Position numbers and translations under genes: made by a program. The notes below the pieces were generated by a model, which was not told where the DNA came from, did not search any database, and saw only the letters and a list, made by a program, of their open reading frames with translations. DNA of 11,885 nucleotides from a virus. The stretch covers positions 176,685-188,569 of the IMG/VR virus record IMGVR_UViG_3300036766_000644; one strand, 5' to 3'. Positions 3,118-11,885 of the stretch are shown here, in pieces (position 1 is the first letter of the stretch; each line of letters opens with the position of its first letter).

Positions 3118-3594
3118 TCACACCCCCGCCTGGACGTAGGTTCCGCCGCGCTCTTTGAAGTTGGGCTCTGTGGTCTGGTTGAGGTGATCTTGGTGCACTA
3201 CTGACGCGTACTTCTCGGCGAAGAAGAGACTGGCACGGTAACGCTTGGACCAGGCGTCACCGCTGGCCATGATCGTAACATCTGCCCGCCTCACATCGTC
3301 GAACCAGAAGGCCTGCGCCTGAAACAGGCCGCCCCCTGCGGTATCAAAGGGGAACCAGAGCTCGGGGTCTCGCGTGGAGAGCTCGAGCGTGTCGGCGTCG
3401 GCTCCAAGCTCTACGCCCACCGAGGCCACAGCCCCGTTGGTCTTCTTCTGGAGACGGAGGAACACTCCAGCGCCGTTCGTCAAGATGACGTCGTGCGCAC
3501 TGAGTTCTCGGGCTAGTGTCAGCCCGACCGAATCCATCAGAAACGACTTGAGCGCGCTGTAGAAAAGCAGAACGCTGTCGAAGGTTTCGTTCAT
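3118..3594 (-). CDS. Hypothetical protein (MNETFDSVLLFYSALK...). The track ORF starts at TTG 3633; ATG at 3594-3592 with a GGAG RBS is preferred.
   Basis: GGAG, 5-nt spacer, then ATG at 3594. TGA stop at 3118-3120 lies 3 nt before the fiber-gene GTG. Composition is protein-like. Confidence 0.5.
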   Translation of the reverse strand: MNETFDSVLLFYSALKSFLMDSVGLTLARELSAHDVILTNGAGVFLRLQKKTNGAVASVGVELGADADTLELSTRDPELWFPFDTAGGGLFQAQAFWFDDVRRADVTIMASGDAWSKRYRASLFFAEKYASVVHQDHLNQTTEPNFKERGGTYVQAGV

Positions 3595-3664
3595 TGCGTC
3601 TCCACGGTGGACCGCCAGAGTATAGGCGAACAACCCCTAGAGGCGCGGCATGAAATGAGGGGCT

Positions 3665-3720
3665 GGGTTCTCGAGACTCCGTAGCACGTCAGTGCCCAAC
3701 CATCAACGCCTCGAGAACCC
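3665..3720. repeat. 11-bp inverted repeat GGGTTCTCGAG ... CTCGAGAACCC with a 34-nt spacer containing a nested 4-bp hairpin (gcac gtca gtgc). Lies in the 164-nt intergenic region between two minus-strand genes.
   Basis: Read directly from the sequence. The arms are at 3665-3675 and 3710-3720. Confidence 0.6.
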
Positions 3721-3758
3721 GCGGAGGTGCCCTCTACCTTGGCCCGCGCTCAGCTTTT

Positions 3759-4010
3759 CTACTCCACTGGACTGAAGTCGACCCAGTACGTCTTGCCGAT
3801 GACGAACTGGTTGTACGCATCCGGGTTGGTGATCGTCAGTCGCAGCTCTCCGCTCGGGGTCCACTTCGACCACTCACGGTTCGCTTTGTCGTCTTCTCCG
3901 CCGTACACCGGCATCAGTGTTACTTCCACTGCTTCCAGCATCCCGGTGCTTGTGCAGACGCTGATGTTCTCTGCTCTCCGCGTGACGCGGCACTTCGCTC
4001 TTACGGGCAT
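3759..4010 (-). CDS. Hypothetical small protein (83 aa, MPVRAKCRVTRRAENISVCTSTGMLEAVEV...).
   Basis: ATG at 4010-4008 and TAG at 3759-3761. Composition is protein-like, whereas the overlapping plus ORF 3727-4290 is Ser/Arg-rich junk. Lies between the hydrolase gene and the intergenic inverted repeat. Weak RBS. Confidence 0.35.
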   Translation of the reverse strand: MPVRAKCRVTRRAENISVCTSTGMLEAVEVTLMPVYGGEDDKANREWSKWTPSGELRLTITNPDAYNQFVIGKTYWVDFSPVE

Positions 4011-4057
4011 TGTGCTACCTGATGTGAGGGCCGCTTACCGCTCGTCCCTTGTCCACC

Positions 4058-4618
4058 TCAGTCGTGAGTGTAGAACAGGAGGTTCTGGATTGCACCGAAA
4101 CCCTTGCTCAGGTCCTGGTCGAAGAAGTTGTTCGCACCAGCCTGGGCGATGTGGCAGAAGTCCGTGCCAGGCAGCACGACCGCGACGTGCCCGATCCCGC
4201 CGGGGTTCTTCCAGACGACCACGGAGGGGAGTCCTTTGGAGGCGCGCTCCATTGCCTTGCTCTTCCCACACTGCATCCAGCCGAACTTAGAAGAGTGCGT
4301 GGCGAACCAGTCGCAGACGCCGTTGGCAGACAACTCCTTGCCCTTCCCACGAGGAACTTCAACGCCGGTCGCCGGGTCAACCCAGTGGGGAACCTCGCAG
4401 CTCATGGCGACGGTGACGTCCCAGAGGTAAATGTTGCAGTAGGTCTCCTGCCCGTTGGCGGGATTCCCGTCATGGCCCCGAACGTATCGAGGATTCGTCT
4501 CCACCTCGAACTGTTTGGCCGCGGCTACGTAGTTCGCTGGGGATCGGTCGCTCAACGGGATCGTCAGGTCGGGTGTCACTTCTTCCCATGCGGCGGGGTT
4601 CTTCATGGAGGGGTTCAT
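4058..4618 (-). CDS. Putative peptidoglycan hydrolase of the papain-like Cys-His type (NlpC/P60 or CHAP-like amidase/peptidase). Candidate endolysin or virion-associated lysin.
   Basis: 186-aa ORF with candidate catalytic Cys in ETYCNIYLWDVT and His in GIGHVAVVLPG about 85 residues downstream; this order and spacing are typical of CHAP/NlpC-P60 enzymes. ATG at 4618-4616 lies one nt after the stop of the upstream glycine-zipper gene. Confidence 0.45.
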   Translation of the reverse strand: MNPSMKNPAAWEEVTPDLTIPLSDRSPANYVAAAKQFEVETNPRYVRGHDGNPANGQETYCNIYLWDVTVAMSCEVPHWVDPATGVEVPRGKGKELSANGVCDWFATHSSKFGWMQCGKSKAMERASKGLPSVVVWKNPGGIGHVAVVLPGTDFCHIAQAGANNFFDQDLSKGFGAIQNLLFYTHD

Positions 4619-4619
4619 G

Positions 4620-5249
4620 TCACTTGCTCGCTGTGAGGGACGGAGGGGCGCCGGGGGCCTTCATGGGTTGCACCACCGGGGGAGGAACCTTCGGCATCGT
4701 GTACTTCATCGCGGCTCCCGTGGCGATGGGAACCGCTGCGAGGGCGATCCGCATGTACTTCGCTACCTCAGGGCTCAGGAAGTCGAACCCTGCTTCCTTC
4801 TCATCCCCGCGAGAAAGGAAGTGGTGGGCCAGGCTCGCAGCAAGCGCCGTCGCTCCGATAGCTGCTGCTGCCCCGGGAGCGTACTTCCTGATCGCACCGG
4901 CGCGACCACTCTGCGTCAGCATCTTGTGGACCTTGTGGACGGCGGCTTGGCCGAGACCTGCGCCGGTAGCCCCACCGGCTAGTCCGCCGCCAGCTCCGCC
5001 CAGGATGAACCCCCCGATTCCTCCCGTCACTCCGAGGAGGCCAGGATGCCGGCCCCCCCACGCGGCACCCCCCAGTCCGCCAGCCCCCAGCCCAGCGATC
5101 CCTCCGGCCAGCCCGCCAGCCGCTCTCGCAGCGATGGGCGTCTGCGTCGGCTGAAGGTGTTCCCACAGCTTCGCCGCTCTGTCGGCGTAGTCGGCCTCTT
5201 TGATGAATGTCTCGCGAGCCTCTCGGGCTCCGGCAGCGTAGAAGTCCAT
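4620..5249 (-). CDS. Glycine-zipper-rich putative membrane protein (GGLAGGIAGLGAGGLGGAAWGG...GGIGGFILGGAGGGLAGGATGAGLG). Holin-like candidate or virion membrane-active protein.
   Basis: 209-aa ORF. The overlapping 217-aa ORF in another frame (4801-5454) is Arg-rich junk. Lies directly 5' of the hydrolase gene with a 1-nt gap. GxxxG repeats are typical of membrane helices. Confidence 0.5.
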   Translation of the reverse strand: MDFYAAGAREARETFIKEADYADRAAKLWEHLQPTQTPIAARAAGGLAGGIAGLGAGGLGGAAWGGRHPGLLGVTGGIGGFILGGAGGGLAGGATGAGLGQAAVHKVHKMLTQSGRAGAIRKYAPGAAAAIGATALAASLAHHFLSRGDEKEAGFDFLSPEVAKYMRIALAAVPIATGAAMKYTMPKVPPPVVQPMKAPGAPPSLTASK

Positions 5250-5264
5250 GGCGGCAGTATAGGC

Positions 5265-5471
5265 TTACTTTCCGCCCTTCAACATCTCCGCCGGAACCGC
5301 GAGCATGTTGTAGATGGCGTCCTTCTGGTGCTGGAAGTACTCGTCTAGCTCGAAGTCTGGAACGTAGGACGCAGATCCGAAGAGACAAGCACCGTCGGGC
5401 ATGTGGTGCTCCCGGATAGCCCAGCAACTTCGGCAGGGGATGTTGAGGACCCATTTCGCAGTGAGCTTCAA
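5265..5471 (-). CDS. Cys-motif small protein, paralog 1 (CRSC-x6-HHMPDGAC-LF). TTG start overlapping the stop of paralog 2 (TTGA).
   Basis: GGAGGA RBS 7 nt upstream of the TTG at 5471-5469. Shares the CxxC...H.D..C.F motif with four neighbouring genes. TAA stop at 5265-5267. Confidence 0.5.
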   Translation of the reverse strand: MKLTAKWVLNIPCRSCWAIREHHMPDGACLFGSASYVPDFELDEYFQHQKDAIYNMLAVPAEMLKGGK

Positions 5472-5671
5472 AAGAGGATCCTCCGGAGCAGTGAGTCGCT
5501 GTAGGGCTCCAACACCGCTGGCTTGTAGAACTGGAACAACGCCGAGTTGACCCGCTCCACTGTGAGCCCTGTTATCGCCGCGAAGTTGCTCGCCTCAAAA
5601 GGGCACTTCTCATCGACGTGGTGCTGGTACTGCTTTCGGCAGTTGGAGCAGCGGGTGGTTGGGGTGGTCAC
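5468..5671 (-). CDS. Cys-motif small protein, paralog 2 (CSNCRKQYQHHVDEKCPFEASNF). GTG start at 5671-5669 overlapping the stop of paralog 3 (GTGA). The track extends it to 5848, inside paralog 3.
   Basis: AGAAGGTG RBS 5 nt upstream of the GTG. The GTGA stop/start overlap was read directly. The N-terminal extension in the track would overlap the paralog 3 coding sequence by 180 nt. Confidence 0.5.
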   Translation of the reverse strand: MTTPTTRCSNCRKQYQHHVDEKCPFEASNFAAITGLTVERVNSALFQFYKPAVLEPYSDSLLRRILF

Positions 5672-5904
5672 TTGTACACCTTCTTGAATCCCCATACGCC
5701 GCCGAAGGTAGCCGTGATGGCGCCGCTCGCCGGGGGCAGGGGCGCTGGGACGAAAGGTATCCGCTCCAGGCTGGCTTCGAAGTTGGACGCTTCGAAAGGG
5801 CACTTCTGGTCGATGTGCACGGTGCCCGGCTTCCCGCAGTTGAGGCACTCCGACGTAGGGTCAGGGACGAATGACTCTTCGAGAGTCGATCCGGTGTCGT
5901 TCAT
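5668..5904 (-). CDS. Cys-motif small protein, paralog 3 (MNDTGSTLEESFVPDPTSECLNCGKPGTVHIDQKCPFEASNFEAS...). ATG overlaps the stop of paralog 4 (ATGA).
   Basis: Strong RBS AAGGAG with a 5-nt spacer before the ATG at 5904-5902. About 30 nt of near-identical DNA shared with paralog 2 (aagttg.ncgc.tc.aaagggcacttct..tcga.gtg). Confidence 0.55.
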   Translation of the reverse strand: MNDTGSTLEESFVPDPTSECLNCGKPGTVHIDQKCPFEASNFEASLERIPFVPAPLPPASGAITATFGGVWGFKKVYK

Positions 5905-6092
5905 TTCTTCTCCTTGTCTTTGGGCTCTTCTACGTAGCACTTGATCGTCTGCTTCAGCACGCTGATGCCCCCGGGCTTGAACTCCGAGGAGTCGAAGAGG
6001 CACTTCTTGTCGAGGTGCTGCGTGTAGTCCTTACCGCAGTTGGCGCAGGTCCGGCGCATCACCGGCATCCTGAGCTTGTACTCTTTGCTCAC
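5901..6092 (-). CDS. Cys-motif small protein, paralog 4 (CANCGKDYTQHLDKKCLFDSSEF). GTG at 6092-6090 overlaps the upstream stop (GTGA); the alternative ATG at 6068 gives MPVMRRTCANC.
   Basis: Motif conserved. Start codon ambiguous, with no clear SD for either candidate. Confidence 0.45.
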   Translation of the reverse strand: MSKEYKLRMPVMRRTCANCGKDYTQHLDKKCLFDSSEFKPGGISVLKQTIKCYVEEPKDKEKK

Positions 6093-6367
6093 GGGTCCGT
6101 GACGCCCATGATCCGACCATCCCCCTGCCAGTCTTTGTACTCGAGCGTGTACTCCACCGGGCCATTCTGCTTGTAGCCTTGTGCCCTGCTGCTGGGTTCG
6201 TCGCTGCTGTAGATCGGGTCCAGTTGTCGGTTGAGGCTCCAGTTCAGGTTCTTGCCGAACCCGTCGGGATTCTTTGCGTCCATGAGCACCTGCTCTGTGT
6301 GGTGCCCCGTCTCCAAGTCTTCTACGGTGAGGGTGATCTGAAGCCGTACTACTTTCTGCGTCGTCAT
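6089..6367 (-). CDS. Hypothetical protein (92 aa, MTTQKVVRLQITLTVEDLETGHH...) inserted between paralogs 5 and 4. It lacks the Cys motif.
   Basis: ATG at 6367-6365 preceded by AGGGG. Its TGA stop overlaps the start of paralog 4. Confidence 0.45.
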   Translation of the reverse strand: MTTQKVVRLQITLTVEDLETGHHTEQVLMDAKNPDGFGKNLNWSLNRQLDPIYSSDEPSSRAQGYKQNGPVEYTLEYKDWQGDGRIMGVTDP

Positions 6368-6375
6368 TTTAACCC

Positions 6376-6645
6376 CTATACGGTGAAGGTGAGCCCCATG
6401 TACTGAATCGTCTTCTTAACGCGGATCTTCATGTCCACGTGAACCTTGTCCCCGTCGGTGACGGTGTTGTCTTCTTCGATGACTCTCTCGCAGCTGCAGT
6501 CCAGGTGGTCGTTGACCGTCTCTTCGCGGTACTGCGTAAAGTCGAAGAGGCAGGCCCCATCGACATGGGCTTCCTTCGGCTTCCGGCAGTTGCCGCAGCG
6601 CCCCTTCTCGACCGTGTGAACCAGGTCCTTCTGGATGGAATGCAT
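6376..6645 (-). CDS. Cys-motif small protein, paralog 5 (CGNCRKPKEAHVDGACLFDFTQY) with an extra C-terminal extension containing DCSC. Probably the first gene of the leftward operon, and possibly leaderless.
   Basis: ATG at 6645-6643. The track start at 6687 is a TTG with no RBS. A TAnnnT element (TACTCT) lies 6 nt upstream of the ATG. Confidence 0.45.
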   Translation of the reverse strand: MHSIQKDLVHTVEKGRCGNCRKPKEAHVDGACLFDFTQYREETVNDHLDCSCERVIEEDNTVTDGDKVHVDMKIRVKKTIQYMGLTFTV

Positions 6646-6719
6646 GGGCGCAGAGTACCCGCGTTCGGAGGGAAAAAGCAACGCCAAATTAGGGTATCAG
6701 TAGTTGAAGGGCCCACACC
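6646..6719. promoter_or_regulatory. Divergent control region. Candidate leftward sigma-70-like promoter (TTGCTT, 18-nt spacer, TACTCT, 6 nt to ATG 6645) overlapping rightward promoter-motif copy 1 (aaattagggtatcagtagttgaagg, 6686-6710, 10 nt before ATG 6720).
   Basis: Hexamers read from the reverse complement of 6652-6681. Motif copy 1 is the most degenerate of the seven copies. Confidence 0.35.
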
Positions 6720-7094
6720 ATGACTACACTGAAATCCTTCCTCAACGGAGCTCGTAGAAACGCCTACATCAAGTACCCGGGCTTCAATTTTATGTACGTC
6801 CGACACACCAAGCGGTTCGGTATCGAAGTGATCGACCTCGCCAACCTGGAGGCGAAGGAACCTGGGCGGGGTTCGTTCGCCCGCCTGGTCAAGCACATAC
6901 GTAAGACGTACCCCCACTTGGGGATCTACGTCGAGTGCGTGCTGAACGAACGGTTCGAAGGCAAGTTGCTCGCAATGGGATTCACCCGTTGCGACGTCGG
7001 AATGAGCGCATGCTTTTACCTCTCACCGGAGATGGAGCTGAATGATCAAACCAGTCAAAGAAGCCCTCAACGAAGTTCTATGGAACCTGCGTGA
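6720..7094 (+). CDS. Small GNAT-family N-acetyltransferase-like protein (124 aa).
   Basis: Segment IEVIDLANLEAKEPGRGSFARLVKHI resembles GNAT motif A (R/Q-x-x-G-x-G/A, acetyl-CoA pyrophosphate loop). VLNERFEGKLLAMGFT resembles motif B (N..A..lYek.GF). The 3' end overlaps the next gene by 53 nt in another frame. Confidence 0.4.
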   Translation: MTTLKSFLNGARRNAYIKYPGFNFMYVRHTKRFGIEVIDLANLEAKEPGRGSFARLVKHIRKTYPHLGIYVECVLNERFEGKLLAMGFTRCDVGMSACFYLSPEMELNDQTSQRSPQRSSMEPA

Positions 7095-7380
7095 GGGGCA
7101 GGCCGTAGTAGGCGTCAAGCGTGACAAGTGGATAGCCCTCATCGAGGCTATCCTGCTGGACGCCGAAGAGAATGAGAAGCTCTTCGTCGATACGAAGATG
7201 CGGCTGATGCGTAACCGCTATTCACTCGAAGAGGTGAAGCAGATTGCAAAGGAGTACGCTGCAACCATCGGCGGAACGCAGTTCGGGCGAACCCGGACGG
7301 ACGTGGAAGACGAAGAAGACTGCAGGCGGAACCTCGAGCGTGTGATCCTCGAAGTGACGGAGAAGAGGACGCTTGGCTAA
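7042..7380 (+). CDS. Hypothetical protein (112 aa, MIKPVKEALNEVLWNLREGQAVVG...).
   Basis: Two GGAG boxes 4 and 10 nt upstream of ATG 7042. Composition is protein-like. TAA stop at 7378-7380. Confidence 0.5.
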   Translation: MIKPVKEALNEVLWNLREGQAVVGVKRDKWIALIEAILLDAEENEKLFVDTKMRLMRNRYSLEEVKQIAKEYAATIGGTQFGRTRTDVEDEEDCRRNLERVILEVTEKRTLG

Positions 7381-7594
7381 ACCGAAACAAGACGACCTTT
7401 CCAGGCGCCGTAGGCTCAACAAGGGCCAGTGCCCGACCCACGGAACAGGGCTCGAGCAAATCGGAGTTGCGACGAACCAACAGGGGATTCCTTTCGGGGA
7501 CACGCTCGCGTGCCCCCGGAAGGACTGTGACTTCTGGACGGAAGTCCGACCCGGAACTAAGCTTTGGGAGGTGCTGCGGTCAAGCGGTGGGTGA
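7373..7594 (+). CDS. Small basic zinc-finger-like protein (73 aa; CPTHG...ACPRKDC, KPKQDDLSRRRRLNK N-terminus). Possible DNA-binding regulator. TTG start overlaps the upstream stop.
   Basis: AGAGGA then a 3-nt spacer before the TTG at 7373. ORF ends just before the hairpin/T-run region. The C-x2-H ... C-x4-C spacing suggests a metal-binding knuckle. Confidence 0.4.
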   Translation: MAKPKQDDLSRRRRLNKGQCPTHGTGLEQIGVATNQQGIPFGDTLACPRKDCDFWTEVRPGTKLWEVLRSSGG

Positions 7595-7600
7595 CCGGCA

Positions 7601-7725
7601 TTCCTGAGTACTTGTTCTGTTCGTCCGGGTACTCAGTAACAACTACCGCAGTGGGGGTCTCGGGGACAGCTGCACCTCCCCCCGGGAGACCTCACCGTCT
7701 GGCCCACGAAACGGGCTTGTTTTTT
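7601..7725 (+). terminator. Cluster of stem-loops ending in a T-run: ttcctgagtac[17]gtactcagtaa at 7601-7639, ggtctcgggg...ccccccgggagacc at 7656-7691, then gcccacgaaacgggc followed by ttgtttttt at 7699-7725. Probable end of the first rightward transcription unit.
   Basis: Inverted repeats read directly from the sequence. The T6 run merges into promoter-motif copy 2. Confidence 0.35.
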
Positions 7726-7743
7726 GGGTATCAGTCTTTGAGC
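7716..7743 (+). promoter_or_regulatory. Promoter-like motif copy 2: cttgttttttGGGTATCAGTCTTTGAGC.
   Basis: One of seven direct copies of the conserved motif. Lies 24 nt upstream of ATG 7767. Confidence 0.5.
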
Positions 7744-7766
7744 ATTCCAGCTCAAGAAAGGTACTC

Positions 7767-8378
7767 ATGGCCGACATGTTCGTCAACCGCCACGCTGTGG
7801 CGGGAATCGATACCAAGGTAGTTTTTAAGAAGGACCTCGAGGGCACCGCCCCAGGGATCGAGGGGGTCCCCAAGTGGATGGCGGTGAACTTCGCCGTCGA
7901 GAACATGGGGCCTGTGGAGCTCTTGCTCCATGGGGGGAGTCTCAAGACTCTGATCGAGGTGCTCCAGAAGGGCCTGGAGAAGCTTCGGACGGAGCCGGAG
8001 GTCCTCTACACGGGCCTCTTCCTCACCCCGGAGTTCAAGGGGGCCCTGCTGGAGGCGTATCCGGCCTTCCACCCCCGACTCCACGCCGACCACGTGACAG
8101 TGGTTTTCAGGCCCGACGAGGCCATGCGGTTTCTGCTGGAGCCTCAGATCGGCAAGGAGTTCCCGATCGTGGTCACCGGAGCCGCTGCGGACGAAAAGGG
8201 GCAGGTTGTGGGCGTTAAGATCCCCTCATTCCTGCAGCATGGAGATCAGCGCCCCCACGTCACCATCTCCTGCGCTGTCAATACAGCGCCGGTCTACAGC
8301 AACCAGCTGCTGGACAAGCTGGTGGAGGTGGCGCCCCTCAAGCTGGTGGGGGTGCTCCGGCACTTCATGTCGAAGTAG
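7767..8378 (+). CDS. 2H phosphoesterase superfamily protein (LigT / 2',5' RNA ligase or cyclic phosphodiesterase-like). Candidate RNA-end healing enzyme or cyclic-nucleotide-degrading anti-defence enzyme.
   Basis: Two H-x-T-x motifs, each followed by hydrophobic residues: DHVTVVF at aa 108-114 and PHVTISC at aa 163-169. This pair is the defining signature of the 2H fold. RBS GAAAGG lies 8 nt upstream of the ATG. Confidence 0.55.
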   Translation: MADMFVNRHAVAGIDTKVVFKKDLEGTAPGIEGVPKWMAVNFAVENMGPVELLLHGGSLKTLIEVLQKGLEKLRTEPEVLYTGLFLTPEFKGALLEAYPAFHPRLHADHVTVVFRPDEAMRFLLEPQIGKEFPIVVTGAAADEKGQVVGVKIPSFLQHGDQRPHVTISCAVNTAPVYSNQLLDKLVEVAPLKLVGVLRHFMSK

Positions 8379-8386
8379 CTCCTCCG

Positions 8387-8410
8387 GGGGCCCCTCTTCG
8401 GAGGGGTCCC
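8387..8410 (+). terminator. Stem-loop ggggcccctc-TTCG-gaggggtccc (10-bp stem with 1 mismatch, UUCG tetraloop) after the 2H gene. No adjacent U-tract, so it may be a processing or stability hairpin rather than an intrinsic terminator.
   Basis: Read directly. Belongs to a ~75-bp hairpin+motif module duplicated at 9085-9167 and 9817-9923. Confidence 0.4.
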
Positions 8411-8427
8411 TGGGAGACCCTAAAAGT

Positions 8428-8456
8428 GATCATTTTTAGGGTATTAGACTTTGAAC
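8428..8456 (+). promoter_or_regulatory. Promoter-like motif copy 3: gatcatttttaGGGTATTAGACTTTGAAC.
   Basis: Conserved motif. Lies 21 nt upstream of ATG 8477, which has an AAGGAG RBS. Confidence 0.5.
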
Positions 8457-8476
8457 CCTTACAAAGGAGTTACATC

Positions 8477-9088
8477 ATGGGCTTGCCCGGGAATACCCGA
8501 ACCGTAACGAATCAGTCGGCCACCTGCGAGCAGGAGAACTGCTTCCGAAAGGCGGTGATCCGTCTGCAGGGGGAGACGGACAGTTTCGGAGCTGAGTCCG
8601 CGGAGCTGTGCGAGGAGTGCTACAAGGAGGGCCTCGCGAAGGAGGCGGCCGAGCGGGCCGCTGGAACGCACTGGATGCAGTCGGCGCACTGCGACTGGTG
8701 CAAGAAGAGCGGGGTCGCGGTGTCCCACAAGCGGGACACCGACGGGGAGGGGACCAGCGGTCCGGTCTACCTCGTCTGTGACCCCTGCAGCGATCGGTAT
8801 GACGCTGCGCTCGCTGAAGAGTACCGCGCCGAGAAGCTCCAGAAGATGGGGTACTCCTCCGAGTTGGAGTACCGGTTGGCGCAGCAGGACGCAGAGGACC
8901 GCCTGTGGGAGGACGAGGATGAGGCTCGCCACATGAACTCCCTGTGGTCCCCCACCATGGCGGTGGAGTGGAAGAGGGAGGCCTTCGAGGAGGCGGTCCT
9001 CGGGTACTACTACGATCCGGATACACGGATCGACCGGCTCCACGAGGCGGCCCTCGAGGAGGCCGCTGCCCGGTCCGAGTACTACTGA
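8477..9088 (+). CDS. Acidic Cys-rich protein with four CxxC-type pairs (CEQENC, CEEC, CDWC, CDPC; probably two zinc ribbons) and a strongly acidic C-terminal half.
   Basis: ATG preceded by AAGGAG. About 43 acidic versus 23 basic residues in 203 aa. The 240-aa antisense ORF 8475-9197 is Pro/Arg/Ser-rich junk. Confidence 0.55.
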   Translation: MGLPGNTRTVTNQSATCEQENCFRKAVIRLQGETDSFGAESAELCEECYKEGLAKEAAERAAGTHWMQSAHCDWCKKSGVAVSHKRDTDGEGTSGPVYLVCDPCSDRYDAALAEEYRAEKLQKMGYSSELEYRLAQQDAEDRLWEDEDEARHMNSLWSPTMAVEWKREAFEEAVLGYYYDPDTRIDRLHEAALEEAAARSEYY

Positions 9089-9116
9089 GCTCCCCCAGGG
9101 GCCCCTCTTCGGAGGG
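9085..9116 (+). terminator. Stem-loop cccaggggcccctc-TTCG-gaggggtccctggg (14-bp stem with 1 mismatch, UUCG loop).
   Basis: Read directly. Paralogous to the hairpins at 8387 and 9817. Confidence 0.4.
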
Positions 9117-9137
9117 GTCCCTGGGAAGGCGTAAAAC

Positions 9138-9167
9138 GATCATTTTTAGGGGTATGAGTCTTTGAGC
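9138..9167 (+). promoter_or_regulatory. Promoter-like motif copy 4: gatcatttttaGGGGTATGAGTCTTTGAGC.
   Basis: Conserved motif. Lies 44 nt upstream of ATG 9211. Confidence 0.5.
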
Positions 9168-9210
9168 CCGTACACTGCCTGGCAGTCCGGCGCTCACCCT
9201 TGGAGGGGTG

Positions 9211-9810
9211 ATGAACCCAACACAGAAGAAGATTCAAGAGGCCTTGGTCAACACGATGTTGACCGATTTGACCCACCTCGCGCTGACGTTCAATCAGCGC
9301 AACCCGGGCGAGGGCCAGGTCGGCTCTCGCTGGGACGAGACGCAGAGCCCGGCGAGCCTCATCGCCGCGGCTGAAACCCCCTACGGCTACGACGCCGGAG
9401 ACAATGCATTTGGTGGGTGTGAGTATTTCCAGTTGCCCATTCCGGGCAGTCTGGGGATCCTCCCCATCGACGCGGTCATCCACATGGGGGTTGGCCCGGA
9501 TGGCGCGGAGCGGAAGGTCTCTTTGGAGGACCCCAAGAAGACGACGGGGTCATCTGGGGGTGGCGTCCAGGCGATCCTGGACGTCACGGAGATCCAGTAC
9601 GCGCTCCACGCACGTAAGGTTCGCTTCAGCGTGGTCTCCCTCGGGCGGGAGAAGGAGGGGGCCCCCCTCCAGGTGTTCACGGTTCATCCGGGGGACGTCT
9701 CCCCGTATGTACCGGGCCTCAACAAGCCCGAGCTGATCGGGCGCGTCGTGACGGCGCAGGAGGCCAAGGACCTCGGGGTCCTCATCGTGAAGCTGCGGAT
9801 CCGGGCCTAA
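9211..9810 (+). CDS. Hypothetical protein (199 aa, MNPTQKKIQEALVNTMLTDLTHL...). The GTG at 9208 is an alternative start.
   Basis: GGAGGGG precedes the ATG. Composition is protein-like. TAA stop at 9808-9810, then a perfect hairpin. Confidence 0.55.
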   Translation: MNPTQKKIQEALVNTMLTDLTHLALTFNQRNPGEGQVGSRWDETQSPASLIAAAETPYGYDAGDNAFGGCEYFQLPIPGSLGILPIDAVIHMGVGPDGAERKVSLEDPKKTTGSSGGGVQAILDVTEIQYALHARKVRFSVVSLGREKEGAPLQVFTVHPGDVSPYVPGLNKPELIGRVVTAQEAKDLGVLIVKLRIRA

Positions 9811-9816
9811 ATGCCC

Positions 9817-9846
9817 CCAGGGACCCCTCTTCGGAGGGGTCCCTGG
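9817..9846 (+). terminator. Perfect 13-bp stem-loop ccagggacccctc-TTCG-gaggggtccctgg (UUCG tetraloop), followed at 9857-9866 by a decayed motif fragment cttgtttttagcc.
   Basis: Read directly from the sequence. Confidence 0.45.
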
Positions 9847-9894
9847 CCCGTAGGCCTTGTTTTTAGCCCTAAACGGCCCCAGGATCATAAAACT

Positions 9895-9923
9895 GATCAA
9901 AATGGGGGTATGAGTACTTGAGC
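9895..9923 (+). promoter_or_regulatory. Promoter-like motif copy 5: gatcaaaatgGGGGTATGAGTACTTGAGC. Here the T-run is replaced by aaaatg.
   Basis: Conserved motif. Lies 50 nt upstream of ATG 9973. Confidence 0.45.
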
Positions 9924-9972
9924 CCAAGTATAGCTGTTCCACCCGTAGTCCGGGGCTCAAAAAGGACACCAG

Positions 9973-10200
9973 ATGAGCTACCTCTTCCCCACCACCTCCG
10001 AGAAGATCTTCAACCGTAAGAACCTCTCGGTCGCCGCTGACGTGACTGTCATCGCCACCGCCGCCATCCCCCTCGCCATCTGGCTGTTCGATGCGGCGAA
10101 GGGCCTCGTCGGCACCGCCTCGACGGCCGCCGCGTCGGTCGCCGCGAAGTTCCAGGCCCGCCGCCCGTCGCACGTGTCCTCGATGCAGGACGTCGGCTAA
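9973..10200 (+). CDS. Small membrane protein (75 aa; TM helix VTVIATAAIPLAIWLF).
   Basis: RBS AAAGGA precedes the ATG. One hydrophobic helix. TAA stop, then an intrinsic terminator. Confidence 0.5.
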   Translation: MSYLFPTTSEKIFNRKNLSVAADVTVIATAAIPLAIWLFDAAKGLVGTASTAAASVAAKFQARRPSHVSSMQDVG

Positions 10201-10224
10201 ACGGCTTCGATCCTCCACCCCTAC

Positions 10225-10256
10225 ACGGGGGCCCTCACAGGCCCCCGTTGTTTTTG
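10225..10256 (+). terminator. Rho-independent terminator: acgggggcc-ctcaca-ggcccccgt, then tgtttttg.
   Basis: 9-bp GC-rich stem immediately followed by a U-tract. Confidence 0.6.
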
Positions 10257-10271
10257 CTCAAAGGAGCTCAC

Positions 10272-10415
10272 ATGTCGCGTTTCGATACGTTCGCTTTCGG
10301 GGTCGTCTTCGGGGTAGGCTTCGCCTTGCTGTACGCCGGGGCTAAAGCGGTCTTCGGTACCCACACCTGCTGCTGCCCTGGAACGGGGGCCCCGCTGGAG
10401 GAGTCCAATGCTTGA
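10272..10415 (+). CDS. Small hydrophobic peptide (47 aa, MSRFDTFAFGVVFGVGFALLYAGAKAVFGTHTCCCPGTGAPLEESNA). Not in the ORF track.
   Basis: AAGGAG RBS 5 nt upstream of ATG 10272. Single TM-like segment followed by a CCC motif. TGA at 10413-10415. Confidence 0.4.
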   Translation: MSRFDTFAFGVVFGVGFALLYAGAKAVFGTHTCCCPGTGAPLEESNA

Positions 10416-10569
10416 TCCAATTAAGCTGTTCGCTGACAAACCTCCAGAGGAGTTGACCGGATCAGAGATCCTGGTCAAAGCCATCTTCACGTGCCTCTCC
10501 TTCCTCATGAAGGTGGAGGAGTTCGAGGGTCGCCTCCTGGAAGCCGAGAAGTCCGCCAAGAAGAGCTAA
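10408..10569 (+). CDS. Small protein (53 aa, MLDPIKLFADKPPEELTGSEILVKAIFTCLSFLMKVEEFEGRLLEAEKSAKKS). Its ATG overlaps the upstream stop (ATGCTTGA). Not in the ORF track.
   Basis: GGAGGA RBS 5 nt upstream. Open to the TAA at 10567-10569, then a terminator. Confidence 0.4.
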   Translation: MLDPIKLFADKPPEELTGSEILVKAIFTCLSFLMKVEEFEGRLLEAEKSAKKS

Positions 10570-10573
10570 AAGA

Positions 10574-10612
10574 CGAGCCACCCGGGGGTCCCCTGAGGTG
10601 GCTTTTCTTTTG
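10574..10612 (+). terminator. Rho-independent terminator: agccacc(c)ggggg-tc-cccct(ga)ggtggct, then tttctttt.
   Basis: Long GC-rich stem followed by a U-tract. Confidence 0.55.
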
Positions 10613-10628
10613 ATCAGAAAAGAGCCTC

Positions 10629-10652
10629 TTTTTTAGGTATCAGTCTTTGAGC
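10629..10652 (+). promoter_or_regulatory. Promoter-like motif copy 6: ttttttaGGTATCAGTCTTTGAGC. Lies only 4 nt before ATG 10657, which implies a leaderless or very short-leader mRNA.
   Basis: Conserved motif. No SD lies between the motif and the ATG. Confidence 0.5.
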
Positions 10653-10656
10653 AATC

Positions 10657-11169
10657 ATGCTCGAGAAAGGTGCCTTCGTGGACAAGTCCACTGCTTATGT
10701 TGTGTCCGCCGTCCTTACCACCATCGCCGGGATCGCCGGTTTCTTCCTCGGTCGTCGCAATGACGCCGAGCGTACCGCCTCCGCCCTCGAGCGGCAGGCG
10801 CTGATCGCCGCTGAGAAGGCGGCGAGCGAGCGTACCTACACGCTCCAGATCAAGGCCACCACGCAGGCCCGCCAGGAGGCCGCCGAGGCGGAGCGCCAGG
10901 AGGCGGCGCGGATCGCCGCCCTCACCCCCGCCCAGCGGGAAGCCTTCGAGTCGGAGCGCAAGCACAAGGAGGAGGCGGCCAACGCCCGCATCGCCGCCCA
11001 GCGGGAGGCCGACGCTGCCTACGCCATCGCTGCCGCCGAGCAGCGCCAGGCGCTGGCCGCTGAGGAGATGGTTCGCGAGACGCGGCGCCTTCGCCGGGAG
11101 ATCGCGGACGTCGCCTACACGGCGCCGTCTCCGGCGTACTACCTGGGCCTGTACACCCGGGGGTACTGA
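10657..11169 (+). CDS. Membrane-anchored coiled-coil protein. N-terminal TM (VVSAVLTTIAGIAGFFLG), then an Ala/Glu/Arg/Gln-rich helical region. The topology resembles an i-spanin or Rz, but the function is unknown.
   Basis: 170-aa ORF. The 201-aa antisense ORF is Arg/Gly/Leu-rich junk. TGA stop, then a terminator. Confidence 0.5.
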   Translation: MLEKGAFVDKSTAYVVSAVLTTIAGIAGFFLGRRNDAERTASALERQALIAAEKAASERTYTLQIKATTQARQEAAEAERQEAARIAALTPAQREAFESERKHKEEAANARIAAQREADAAYAIAAAEQRQALAAEEMVRETRRLRREIADVAYTAPSPAYYLGLYTRGY

Positions 11170-11182
11170 GTCACGCCGTCCG

Positions 11183-11215
11183 CCGCCCACAGAACATCGT
11201 GGGCGGTTTCTTTTG
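11183..11215 (+). terminator. Rho-independent terminator: ccgcccac-agaacatc-gtgggcgg, then tttcttttg.
   Basis: 8-bp stem followed by a U-tract. Confidence 0.55.
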
Positions 11216-11227
11216 CCTAGGAGTGCC

Positions 11228-11677
11228 ATGGAACTCATCCTGCTGTGCGGGATCTCTGGGTCGGGTAAGACGACCTACCGTGACAAACACTTTCCCGACG
11301 CAGTTCTGGCGTCGGCAGACGATGGAATGATGGAGAACGGGATCTACGTGTTCCGAGGGTCCAACCTCGAGCACGCCCACGGAGCTTGTTTCCGGCGGGT
11401 AATCGAGGCCCTTCAGTCTCGCCGCCCGCTGGTGGTTGTGGACAATACGAACATCACCATTGAAGCGGTGGCCCCGTATATGTCCGCAGGGGAAGCCTAC
11501 GGGTACAAGGTCCGGCTCCTCTGCCTGAAGTTGGCCCCCGAGATCGCTGGCCCTCGGAACACCCACAAGGTACCGCAGGCCAAGGTCGAGGAGATGGCAA
11601 AGACGTTCGACGCCTTCCTCAAGAACCTCCCAAGGCGCTGGAAAGCACGCGTAGAACTGGTCCCCGCCGATCCGTAG
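11228..11677 (+). CDS. P-loop kinase of the polynucleotide-kinase / AAA_33 type (MELILLCGISGSGKTT ... PLVVVDNTNI).
   Basis: Walker A GISGSGKTT at the N-terminus. The hhhhDNTN Walker-B-like motif, as I recall it, is characteristic of PNK-family kinases. AGGAG RBS 4 nt upstream of ATG 11228. The track starts 15 nt earlier, with no RBS. Confidence 0.5.
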   Translation: MELILLCGISGSGKTTYRDKHFPDAVLASADDGMMENGIYVFRGSNLEHAHGACFRRVIEALQSRRPLVVVDNTNITIEAVAPYMSAGEAYGYKVRLLCLKLAPEIAGPRNTHKVPQAKVEEMAKTFDAFLKNLPRRWKARVELVPADP

Positions 11678-11694
11678 GCGGGGGCCTTTTTTTG
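11662..11694 (+). terminator. Hairpin ccccgcc-gatccgtag-ggcgggg, then gcc and ttttttt, which merges into motif copy 7.
   Basis: 7-bp GC stem, 3 nt, then a T7 run. Confidence 0.45.
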
Positions 11695-11710
11695 GTATCA
11701 GATCTTGAGC
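11686..11710 (+). promoter_or_regulatory. Promoter-like motif copy 7: ctttttttGGTATCAGATCTTGAGC.
   Basis: Conserved motif. Lies 38 nt upstream of ATG 11749. Confidence 0.45.
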
Positions 11711-11748
11711 CTCAGCTTTACTCCCACGGGCTCGGAAAGGTACCACAC

Positions 11749-11885
11749 ATGCAGCTCATGTTGGCCTACGTGGCAGCCGCCACCTCCCCAGAGGAGCTTC
11801 TCTGGATCGCGGAGTTCGCAGCGGAGTTGAAAACCGCGGCGGATACACGCCGTTGGGGCCCGATCCTGGGCCGTCTTGAGAACTC
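11749..11885 (+). CDS. Hypothetical protein, N-terminal fragment (MQLMLAYVAAATSPEELLWIAEFAAELKTAADTRRWGPILGRLEN...) running off the window.
   Basis: GGAAAGG RBS 8 nt upstream. Open to the end of the window. Confidence 0.45.
   Translation, partial: MQLMLAYVAAATSPEELLWIAEFAAELKTAADTRRWGPILGRLEN

Follow-up and report, generated by a model that had tools for sequence, protein, structure and literature searches.

The closest described counterparts of the two phage proteins treated here are the tRNA ligase Trl1 and CNPase. Trl1 unites a cyclic phosphodiesterase (CPD) domain of the 2H fold with a P-loop 5′-hydroxyl kinase and carries three activities in one polypeptide. CNPase, whose N-terminal domain has no kinase activity, descends from tRNA-healing enzymes with polynucleotide kinase (PNK) and CPD activity (PMC5434554), and both CNPase and Trl1-CPD leave a 3′-hydroxyl and a 2′-phosphate (PMC9503650). 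In large phages 2H enzymes have been proposed to clear 2′,3′-cyclic ends for tRNA ligases (PMC7824862; PMC9503650); a survey of jumbo phages gave the same repair role to kinases and SAK phosphatases, and such repair is held to counter host ribonucleases that cut tRNA and other translation RNAs (PMC7824862). That large phages repair RNA with 2H enzymes and kinases is already an established idea in the comparative-genomics literature and will not surprise a specialist. Here we analyse a stretch of 11,885 nucleotides (the window; positions 176,685–188,569 of the IMG/VR virus record IMGVR_UViG_3300036766_000644) which encodes on its plus strand a 2H protein of 203 amino acids and a kinase of the PNK clade (Table 1). 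We suggest that the pair most likely represents the two end-healing steps of an RNA repair pathway of the Trl1/CNPase type, split into small proteins, and give this reading a probability of about 55%.

The original prediction had recognized the 2H fold from two HxT motifs, DHVTVVF and PHVTISC, in the gene at 7767–8378. The motifs and their positions were confirmed and belong to a large protein family. The gene has an ATG start preceded by a Shine–Dalgarno-like sequence (GAAAGG). A word-indexed search found only five close homologues of its product, at 73–100% identity, and a HMMER profile of these five retrieved 830 representative proteins at E ≤ 1e-3, every match being confined to residues ∼78–200. 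Most of the 830 are stand-alone proteins of 125–150 amino acids, and members of the family carry the label hypothetical. In an alignment of 150 diverse homologues out of the 830, the first motif retains His109 in 149 and Thr111 in 148 sequences and the second motif His164 in 147 and Thr166 in 149. Ser168 and Tyr177 (143 sequences each), Ser178 (141), Asn179 (133), Asp142, Gln146 and His102 are likewise strongly conserved. A coincidental HxT pair is ruled out by this family-wide conservation and by the fold, as an AlphaFold model of the domain computed from 93 diverse sequences (predicted local distance difference test, pLDDT, 97.5; predicted template modelling score 0.89) has the bilobed α+β architecture of the 2H enzymes with each motif on a central β-strand. 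The predicted fold is therefore borne out, with the refinement that the 2H part comprises only the C-terminal ∼125 residues (78–203), which we call the mini-2H domain. The model of the full-length protein, made with AlphaFold2 from the five close homologues, was unusable (pLDDT 32). Residues 1–77 have no match in Pfam, PHROG or NCBIfam nor in any other protein or locus that we fetched, and the relatives have other extensions or none.

It had also been expected that profile searches would place the protein in the 2H family, and this holds for its relatives and not for the protein itself. The 203-residue protein gave no match to a curated 2H model in Pfam or NCBIfam and no useful sequence match in PDB or PHROG; the PDB search returned only spurious matches of its N-terminal part to armadillo repeats. 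The mini-2H family profile reached CNPase among the PDB sequences at E ∼0.14 only, which is not significant. The sole Pfam family matched by the relatives is PF08302 (tRNA_lig_CPD, fungal tRNA ligase), and several of them pass its gathering cutoff of 23 bits, for example P0233 with 40.9 bits and P0041 with 30.4 bits. The link of the window protein to a curated 2H family is transitive because it runs via these relatives; the identity of P0041 with the window domain is ∼45% when the full alignment is counted and 53% when only the best local one is taken. When structures are compared with Foldseek, 48 CNPase entries come first in the PDB, followed by the KIN-CPD part of Candida Trl1 (6u05, E 1.6e-4) and by goldfish RICH, and the second motif aligns with HVTLGCA of CNPase, the motif of H309 and T311. 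The mini-2H domain is closer to CNPase and Trl1-CPD than to LigT, AKAP7, Usb1 or Acb1. In addition, the PF08302 matches of the relatives always lie in the second half of the model (positions ∼122–247 of 250), and thus the domain is a genuine, if unusually compact, 2H domain that belongs to the CNPase/Trl1-CPD branch. It is a truncated variant, as its ∼125 residues compare with ∼250 positions in the Pfam model and ∼215 residues in the catalytic domain of CNPase (PDB 2xmi) and fish RICH. Large parts of the CNPase lobes are absent, and the two motifs are 55 residues apart instead of 79. A further difference from CNPase is that the phage kinase has a gene of its own and keeps its catalytic motifs. 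A length of ∼125 residues appears to be among the smallest for 2H catalytic domains, and at this size the domain would offer a handy minimal scaffold for work on 2H catalysis.

The second protein had been assigned to the PNK type because of the motifs GISGSGKTT and VVVDNTN in the gene at 11228–11677, and this assignment proved correct. Both motifs are invariant in the family, and the protein matches AAA_33 of Pfam (1.1e-14), phrog_2071 (labelled ATPase, 1.6e-22), phrog_505 (polynucleotide kinase, 9e-7) and the kinase part only of the NCBIfam model bacter_Pnkp. When all PDB sequences were screened with a profile built from 33 stand-alone homologues, T4 Pnk came first (3.6e-17), then the kinase of C. 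thermocellum Pnkp (CthPnkp; 2e-14), phosphoseryl-tRNA kinase (PSTK; 7e-13), a Mucorales RNA 5′-hydroxyl kinase (4e-10), mammalian PNKP (2e-9) and Pnkp1 (5e-8). The 16 best matches are all polynucleotide or tRNA kinases (3.6e-17 to 4.8e-8), and the next class begins at 1.6e-5 with adenylate kinase 9, which is matched in the P-loop only, followed by nicotinamide riboside kinase (6.6e-5) and PFK-2 (1e-4). A closer relation to shikimate or adenylate kinases, which would have spoken against the original prediction, is rejected since the PNK-clade matches are far ahead in this search.

The window kinase is closer to T4 Pnk and CthPnkp than to any other solved structure, also when set against Trl1. 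It has in common with T4 Pnk (1ly1/1ltq) and CthPnkp (4gp7) the P-loop, the catalytic Asp, the D-x-T-N motif and the R-N…V-P lid, and it differs from both as a stand-alone protein of 149 amino acids without a fused phosphatase. Asp31 aligns with Asp35 of T4 Pnk, which we take to be the general base of that enzyme, and with the Asp of the CthPnkp SSD motif. Arg110 and Asn111 align with R122–N123 of T4 Pnk and are at least 90% conserved in a set of 13 sequences, in which His113 is invariant; His113 and Val115 are at least 90% conserved in the 33 homologues. The motif set STDDFF/AH/DNTN/RNxHGV presumably resembles that of the eukaryotic N4BP2/N4BP2L kinase domains. An alternative start at a TTG (11213) is less likely in view of the homologue N-termini, the gene calls and the TAGGAG sequence before 11228. 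The subfamily is widespread in large phages, where its usual label is ATPase.

Table 1. Positions of the two genes, their domains and motifs, and the terminator-like hairpins of the plus-strand arm (window coordinates)
Feature	Position	Strand	Remarks
Weak terminator-like hairpin	7701–7717	+	Upstream of the 2H gene; pattern scan only
Two-domain protein of 203 aa: clade-specific N-terminal extension and mini-2H phosphoesterase	7767–8378	+	From the list of open reading frames; gene call on the Logan contig
N-terminal extension, residues 1–77, no assigned function	7767–7997	+	Present in the five close homologues only
Mini-2H domain (CNPase/Trl1-CPD-like), predicted cyclic phosphodiesterase, residues 78–203, ∼125 residues	7998–8375	+	
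First HxTx catalytic motif HVTV, residues 109–112 (H109, T111)	8091–8102	+	Starts a β-strand in the model
Second HxTx catalytic motif HVTI, residues 164–167 (H164, T166)	8256–8267	+	Followed by conserved S168
Family signature PVYSN, P175–N179	8289–8303	+	P-V part aligns with QPV of CNPase after motif 2
Strong terminator-like hairpin, 9 bp stem, 8 GC pairs, T-run	10225–10248	+	Between the 2H and kinase genes; pattern scan only
Strong terminator-like hairpin	11182–11207	+	Directly upstream of the kinase gene; pattern scan only
Stand-alone PNK-clade P-loop kinase of 149 aa	11228–11677	+	ATG start, TAGGAG upstream
Walker A/P-loop GISGSGKT (G8–T15)	11249–11272	+	G8, G11, G13 and K14 invariant in 33 homologues
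SADD motif, D31 the counterpart of T4 Pnk Asp35	11312–11323	+	S29 and D31 nearly invariant
VDNTN (V71–N75), Walker-B-like PNK-clade motif	11438–11452	+	Invariant in 33 homologues; aligns with VVDATN of CthPnkp and ISDTN of T4
Lid motif RNTHKVP (R110–P116), shortened form of the PNK lid RNxxRGxxxVP	11555–11575	+	
Strong terminator-like hairpin, 10 bp stem, 9 GC pairs, T7 run	11659–11686	+	Overlaps the kinase stop codon; pattern scan only

The domain fusions and the gene neighbourhoods of the relatives give a hint how the two proteins might act together. Among the top 150 relatives, 12 have the mini-2H domain fused to a HAD_SAK_1 phosphatase. In P0152 it is fused to an Rnl1-type RNA ligase (RNA_lig_T4_1, 5.8e-36) and in P0159 to an AAA_33 kinase. 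Two giant proteins of the Swiss Army Knife (SAK) type, P0151 and P0162, combine it with the kinase and with HAD_SAK_1, MJ1316, an AKAP7-like 2H domain, R3H or a ligase. In P0151 the mini-2H domain is flanked on one side by an AAA_33 kinase that belongs to the window subfamily and on the other by HAD_SAK_1, and MJ1316, AKAP7-2H and R3H are present as well. Scored with the hidden Markov model of the window kinase family, the kinase domains of P0151 and P0162 reach 109 and 95 bits, and they have the same motif set; thus both window domain families occur in one polypeptide, a Rosetta-stone link. A PNK-type P-loop kinase is thus fused to the mini-2H domain in P0151, P0159 and P0162 and not in the window. 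The fusions with an Rnl1-type ligase and with the kinase in P0152 and P0162 are Trl1-like, and giant-virus multidomain proteins, among them a 765-residue protein named RNA ligase, are the best Foldseek matches of the domain in a viral library. The SAK proteins, which were reportedly described as RNA repair proteins by Burroughs and Aravind in 2016, are related to our case in that the mini-2H domain of the relatives is fused to or near HAD_SAK_1 or HAD_SAK_2. They differ from it in that the window phage has two domains only, on separate small proteins.

Neighbourhoods of mini-2H genes were collected by scanning viral contigs with an alignment of 14 sequences. A kinase of the same subfamily (100–194 bits) lies within 10 kb in five of nine independent mini-2H lineages (window/L002, L006, L012, L013 and L014), for which the binomial probability is 1e-8 to 9e-4 at assumed base rates of 1–10%; in a sixth lineage (L005/L007) the genome has such a kinase at a distance of 23 kb. 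Locus L014 has a complete cassette, in which a CCA-type nucleotidyltransferase, tRNA-Cys, the mini-2H gene, tRNA-Trp, a kinase-HD protein, Rnl1 and HAD_SAK_2 are found together, and tRNA genes flank the 2H gene also in L005, L012 and L013. Of six cultured phages sampled, five have the kinase homologue, annotated as ATPase, hypothetical or polynucleotide kinase, in a cassette of phosphoesterase, RNA ligase and kinase. By analogy, the mini-2H protein would fill the phosphoesterase slot of such cassettes in the window phage. The proposal that the two genes supply the two healing activities of an RNA repair pathway is therefore supported by the fusions and by the kinase linkage.

Some details of these loci deserve mention in their own right. 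The kinase of L014 (11397–12377), a member of the window subfamily directly upstream of Rnl1, has a C-terminal HD-like domain (H…HD…H, judged by eye), which is the reverse of the domain order of HD-Pnk. In the 168 kb relative L005 six tRNA genes (at 987–1731 and 15669–15918) flank the mini-2H gene, namely Lys-UUU, Val-UAC, Glu-UUC, Leu-UAG, Gln-UUG and Leu-UAA; Lys-UUU, Glu-UUC and Gln-UUG are classic targets of anticodon nucleases. In Pseudomonas phage PHB09 (L015) and in vB_PseuGesM_254 (L016) the pair of RNA ligase and kinase lies amid NAD+ salvage genes, with nicotinamide phosphoribosyltransferase, phosphoribosyl pyrophosphate synthetase and Nudix and HD hydrolases as neighbours, a context in keeping with the link that has been proposed between RNA repair and NAD+ metabolism.

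The fold, the conserved catalytic motifs, the kinase clade, the fusions and the gene linkage are results of the present analysis. For the substrates, the product chemistry, the cooperation of the two proteins and their biological role we infer a scheme in which the mini-2H domain would use its two HxT histidines to open, without metal, the 2′,3′-cyclic phosphate ends of RNA that metal-independent host ribonucleases such as anticodon nucleases would leave behind. The product would have a 3′-hydroxyl and a 2′-phosphate, by analogy with CNPase and Trl1-CPD. The kinase would transfer a phosphate from a nucleoside triphosphate to the 5′-hydroxyl end, using Lys14 and Thr15 of the P-loop and Asp31 as a putative general base. 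The healed ends might then be joined by an RNA ligase, which either another part of the ∼188 kb phage genome or the host would encode, and a phosphatase or a KptA-type enzyme might remove the 2′-phosphate. As a net effect, host cuts in tRNA or other translation RNAs would be countered and translation kept running during infection.

Several observations weigh against this scheme. First, the partners it calls for were not found nearby. The original prediction had noted the absence of a sealing ligase from the window, which we confirmed, and had recommended a search of the rest of the genome. This search covered ∼30 kb of the 188.6 kb parent contig, with L001 (15 kb read from a 30 kb Logan contig with the same proteins), and in addition the close relative L002. 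Neither the window nor L001 nor L002 contains an RNA ligase detectable with Pfam, PHROG, NCBIfam or iterated local ligase profiles, nor do their open reading frames include a HAD, HD or metallophosphoesterase protein, also when probed with local HAD_SAK and HAD_PNKP profiles. In this respect the split phage system differs from Trl1. The contig of the window has no tRNA genes. Second, 2.85 kb separate the 2H gene from the kinase gene, and this interval contains six open reading frames, unrelated and clade-specific, and two strong terminator-like hairpins, so that the two genes do not form a tight operon; the kinase gene looks monocistronic.

Third, when 80 viral loci were selected on the kinase subfamily, a distant 2H protein was found within 10 kb in two and an RNA ligase in six, and in one relative the neighbours of the kinase are instead a DNA ligase and Pyr_excise. 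As most kinase-selected loci are without repair partners, the association is asymmetric: the mini-2H gene is usually accompanied by this kinase, and the kinase is the more widely used module. Finally, the kinase has no counterparts of Arg38 and Arg126 of T4 Pnk, which we take to be an acceptor-phosphate contact and the second lid arginine, both presumably essential. Met34 (Phe in the family consensus) stands at the position of Arg38, and the lid is four residues shorter than that of T4 Pnk and therefore has no place for Arg126. The family conserves instead a near-invariant Tyr40, His51 and His113. With Asp31 and Arg110–Asn111 kept, the two arginines lost and these three residues gained, the kinase is, as far as its sequence tells, a distinct subfamily within the PNK clade.

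These points leave some room for the view that the two proteins have independent functions, which is the best of the alternatives and in our opinion an improbable one. The kinase would heal 5′-hydroxyl ends of DNA for a phage DNA ligase or serve another phosphorylation, the 2H enzyme would be a cyclic phosphodiesterase acting on nucleotides or Appr>p, and the proximity of the genes would be incidental. On the contrary, P0151 and P0162 each unite both domain families in one protein, a kinase within 10 kb in five of nine lineages is far above any plausible base rate, and in L014 and five cultured phages the kinase subfamily adjoins RNA ligases and not DNA ligases.

Quite unlikely, in our estimate, is a role of the 2H protein with its unique 77-residue extension in counter-defence, in place of repair or besides it, either as a new Acb1-like family that arose from the CNPase/Trl1 branch and would destroy a cyclic-nucleotide signal or one bearing a 2′,3′-cyclic phosphate, or together with the kinase as a block to religation by RtcB. 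If counter-defence or interference with repair were true, it would be a new mechanism, and the family that carries it, with more than 800 sequence clusters, has no member in cultured phages. We hold it to be slightly less probable still that the mini-2H protein alone, in the manner of Acb1 or of the viral 2′,5′-phosphodiesterases, degrades immune second messengers of CBASS, type III CRISPR, Thoeris or Pycsar, with the kinase being unrelated. The domain showed no specific affinity to Acb1 over other 2H branches, neither in sequence nor in structure. Acb1 (PDB 7t27, 9q2y) ranks tenth in the Foldseek search of the viral library, its structural score is about half that of CNPase, and a sequence-level link is missing. 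Unlike Acb1, the mini-2H family has RNA-repair enzymes as fusion and neighbourhood partners, and this context favours RNA end-healing over anti-signalling. RtcB joins ends with a 2′,3′-cyclic phosphate and a 5′-hydroxyl, and the weakest idea, that the pair converts such ends to 2′-phosphate/3′-hydroxyl and 5′-phosphate ends which the host RtcB cannot join and thereby locks in the damage done by a phage or host nuclease, is very improbable: it draws on the predicted end chemistry, which is incompatible with RtcB, and on the lack of a visible cognate 5′-phosphate ligase near the genes, being conjecture otherwise, while no phage nuclease partner was identified and the fusion or adjacency of the families to 5′-phosphate-dependent RNA ligases in P0152, P0162 and L014 points to productive repair.

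With RNA end-healing as the preferred reading, the novelty of the locus lies in four features. Pfam has no separate model for the compact 2H subfamily of the CNPase branch, and tblastn gave no match to it in 50,697 deposited phage genomes, the arrangement is split where the eukaryotic and giant-virus forms are fused, the mini-2H protein has a clade-specific N-terminal extension, and the kinase active site appears to be without the two canonical arginines. If the reading is true, a phage lineage possesses a healing module of the eukaryotic Trl1/CNPase type in a stripped-down and split form, which differs from the T4-type Pnkp with its kinase and HAD phosphatase. The predicted 2′-phosphate end, if true, would imply a 2′-phosphate-tolerant ligase or a 2′-phosphate-removing step in a bacterial virus. 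For annotation, it is of value that a mini-2H family of at least 830 representative clusters is tied to RNA repair through fusions. The placement in the PNK clade of kinases labelled ATPase and devoid of the two arginines raises a defined question of substrate binding.

The source of the window is a large uncultured phage. The exact proteins are also encoded on a 188,569-bp JGI contig and on the 30 kb Logan contig, which ends 833 nt past the window, and IMG/VR phage contigs of 168–190 kb carry related genes. A near-identity DNA search with the plus-strand arm gave no match among the 50,697 GenBank phage genomes. The GC content of the window is 55–66% and its layout is divergent, with genes on the minus strand up to ∼6687 and mostly small genes on the plus strand from 6720. 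No sigma-70-like promoter was found in 6500–11885, and the phage thus probably uses other promoter types. Two of the three strong GC-rich hairpins with T-runs in the plus-strand arm bracket the kinase gene.

A 73-residue Cys-containing protein (7373–7594, plus strand) is encoded directly upstream of the 2H gene and is the sole other window gene which keeps its adjacency to mini-2H in the more distant L004 (9307–9681; E 5.5e-39). On the other side of the 2H gene follows a Cys-rich acidic protein of 220 amino acids (8426–9088, plus strand) with a match to phrog_15864 of unknown function (3.7e-18) and a sub-threshold match to DUF7685; this neighbourhood is conserved in the close relative L002 only. 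The PDB sequence search with the protein at 9208–9810 gave nothing convincing.

The minus strand encodes a tail-fibre-like protein of 592 amino acids with Laminin_G_3. At 4058–5249 a 186-residue protein is followed by a 209-residue Gly/Ala-rich protein with long GGxxGG runs; neither matches a Pfam or PHROG family, and the two might be a lysis or membrane module. At 5468–6687 there is a tandem array of small Cys-rich paralogues (open reading frames 5468–5848, 5668–6003, 5901–6092 and 6376–6687) with the common motif C-x-N-C-x-K … H-x-D-x(2)-C-x-F, for example CSNCRKQYQHHVDEKCPF, CLNCGKPGTVHIDQKCPF, CANCGKDYTQHLDKKCLF and CGNCRKPKEAHVDGACLF. They have no family match and, judged from the motif, look like a locally amplified family of zinc-binding mini-proteins. 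Outside the window, the 168 kb phage contig Ga0499953_000001 (L007) encodes at 3165–5825 a protein of 886 amino acids with Pfam matches to Vault repeats and MVP_shoulder (major vault protein), an unusual finding in a phage genome. A DNA ligase, Pyr_excise and a kinase homologue follow a few kb downstream of it.

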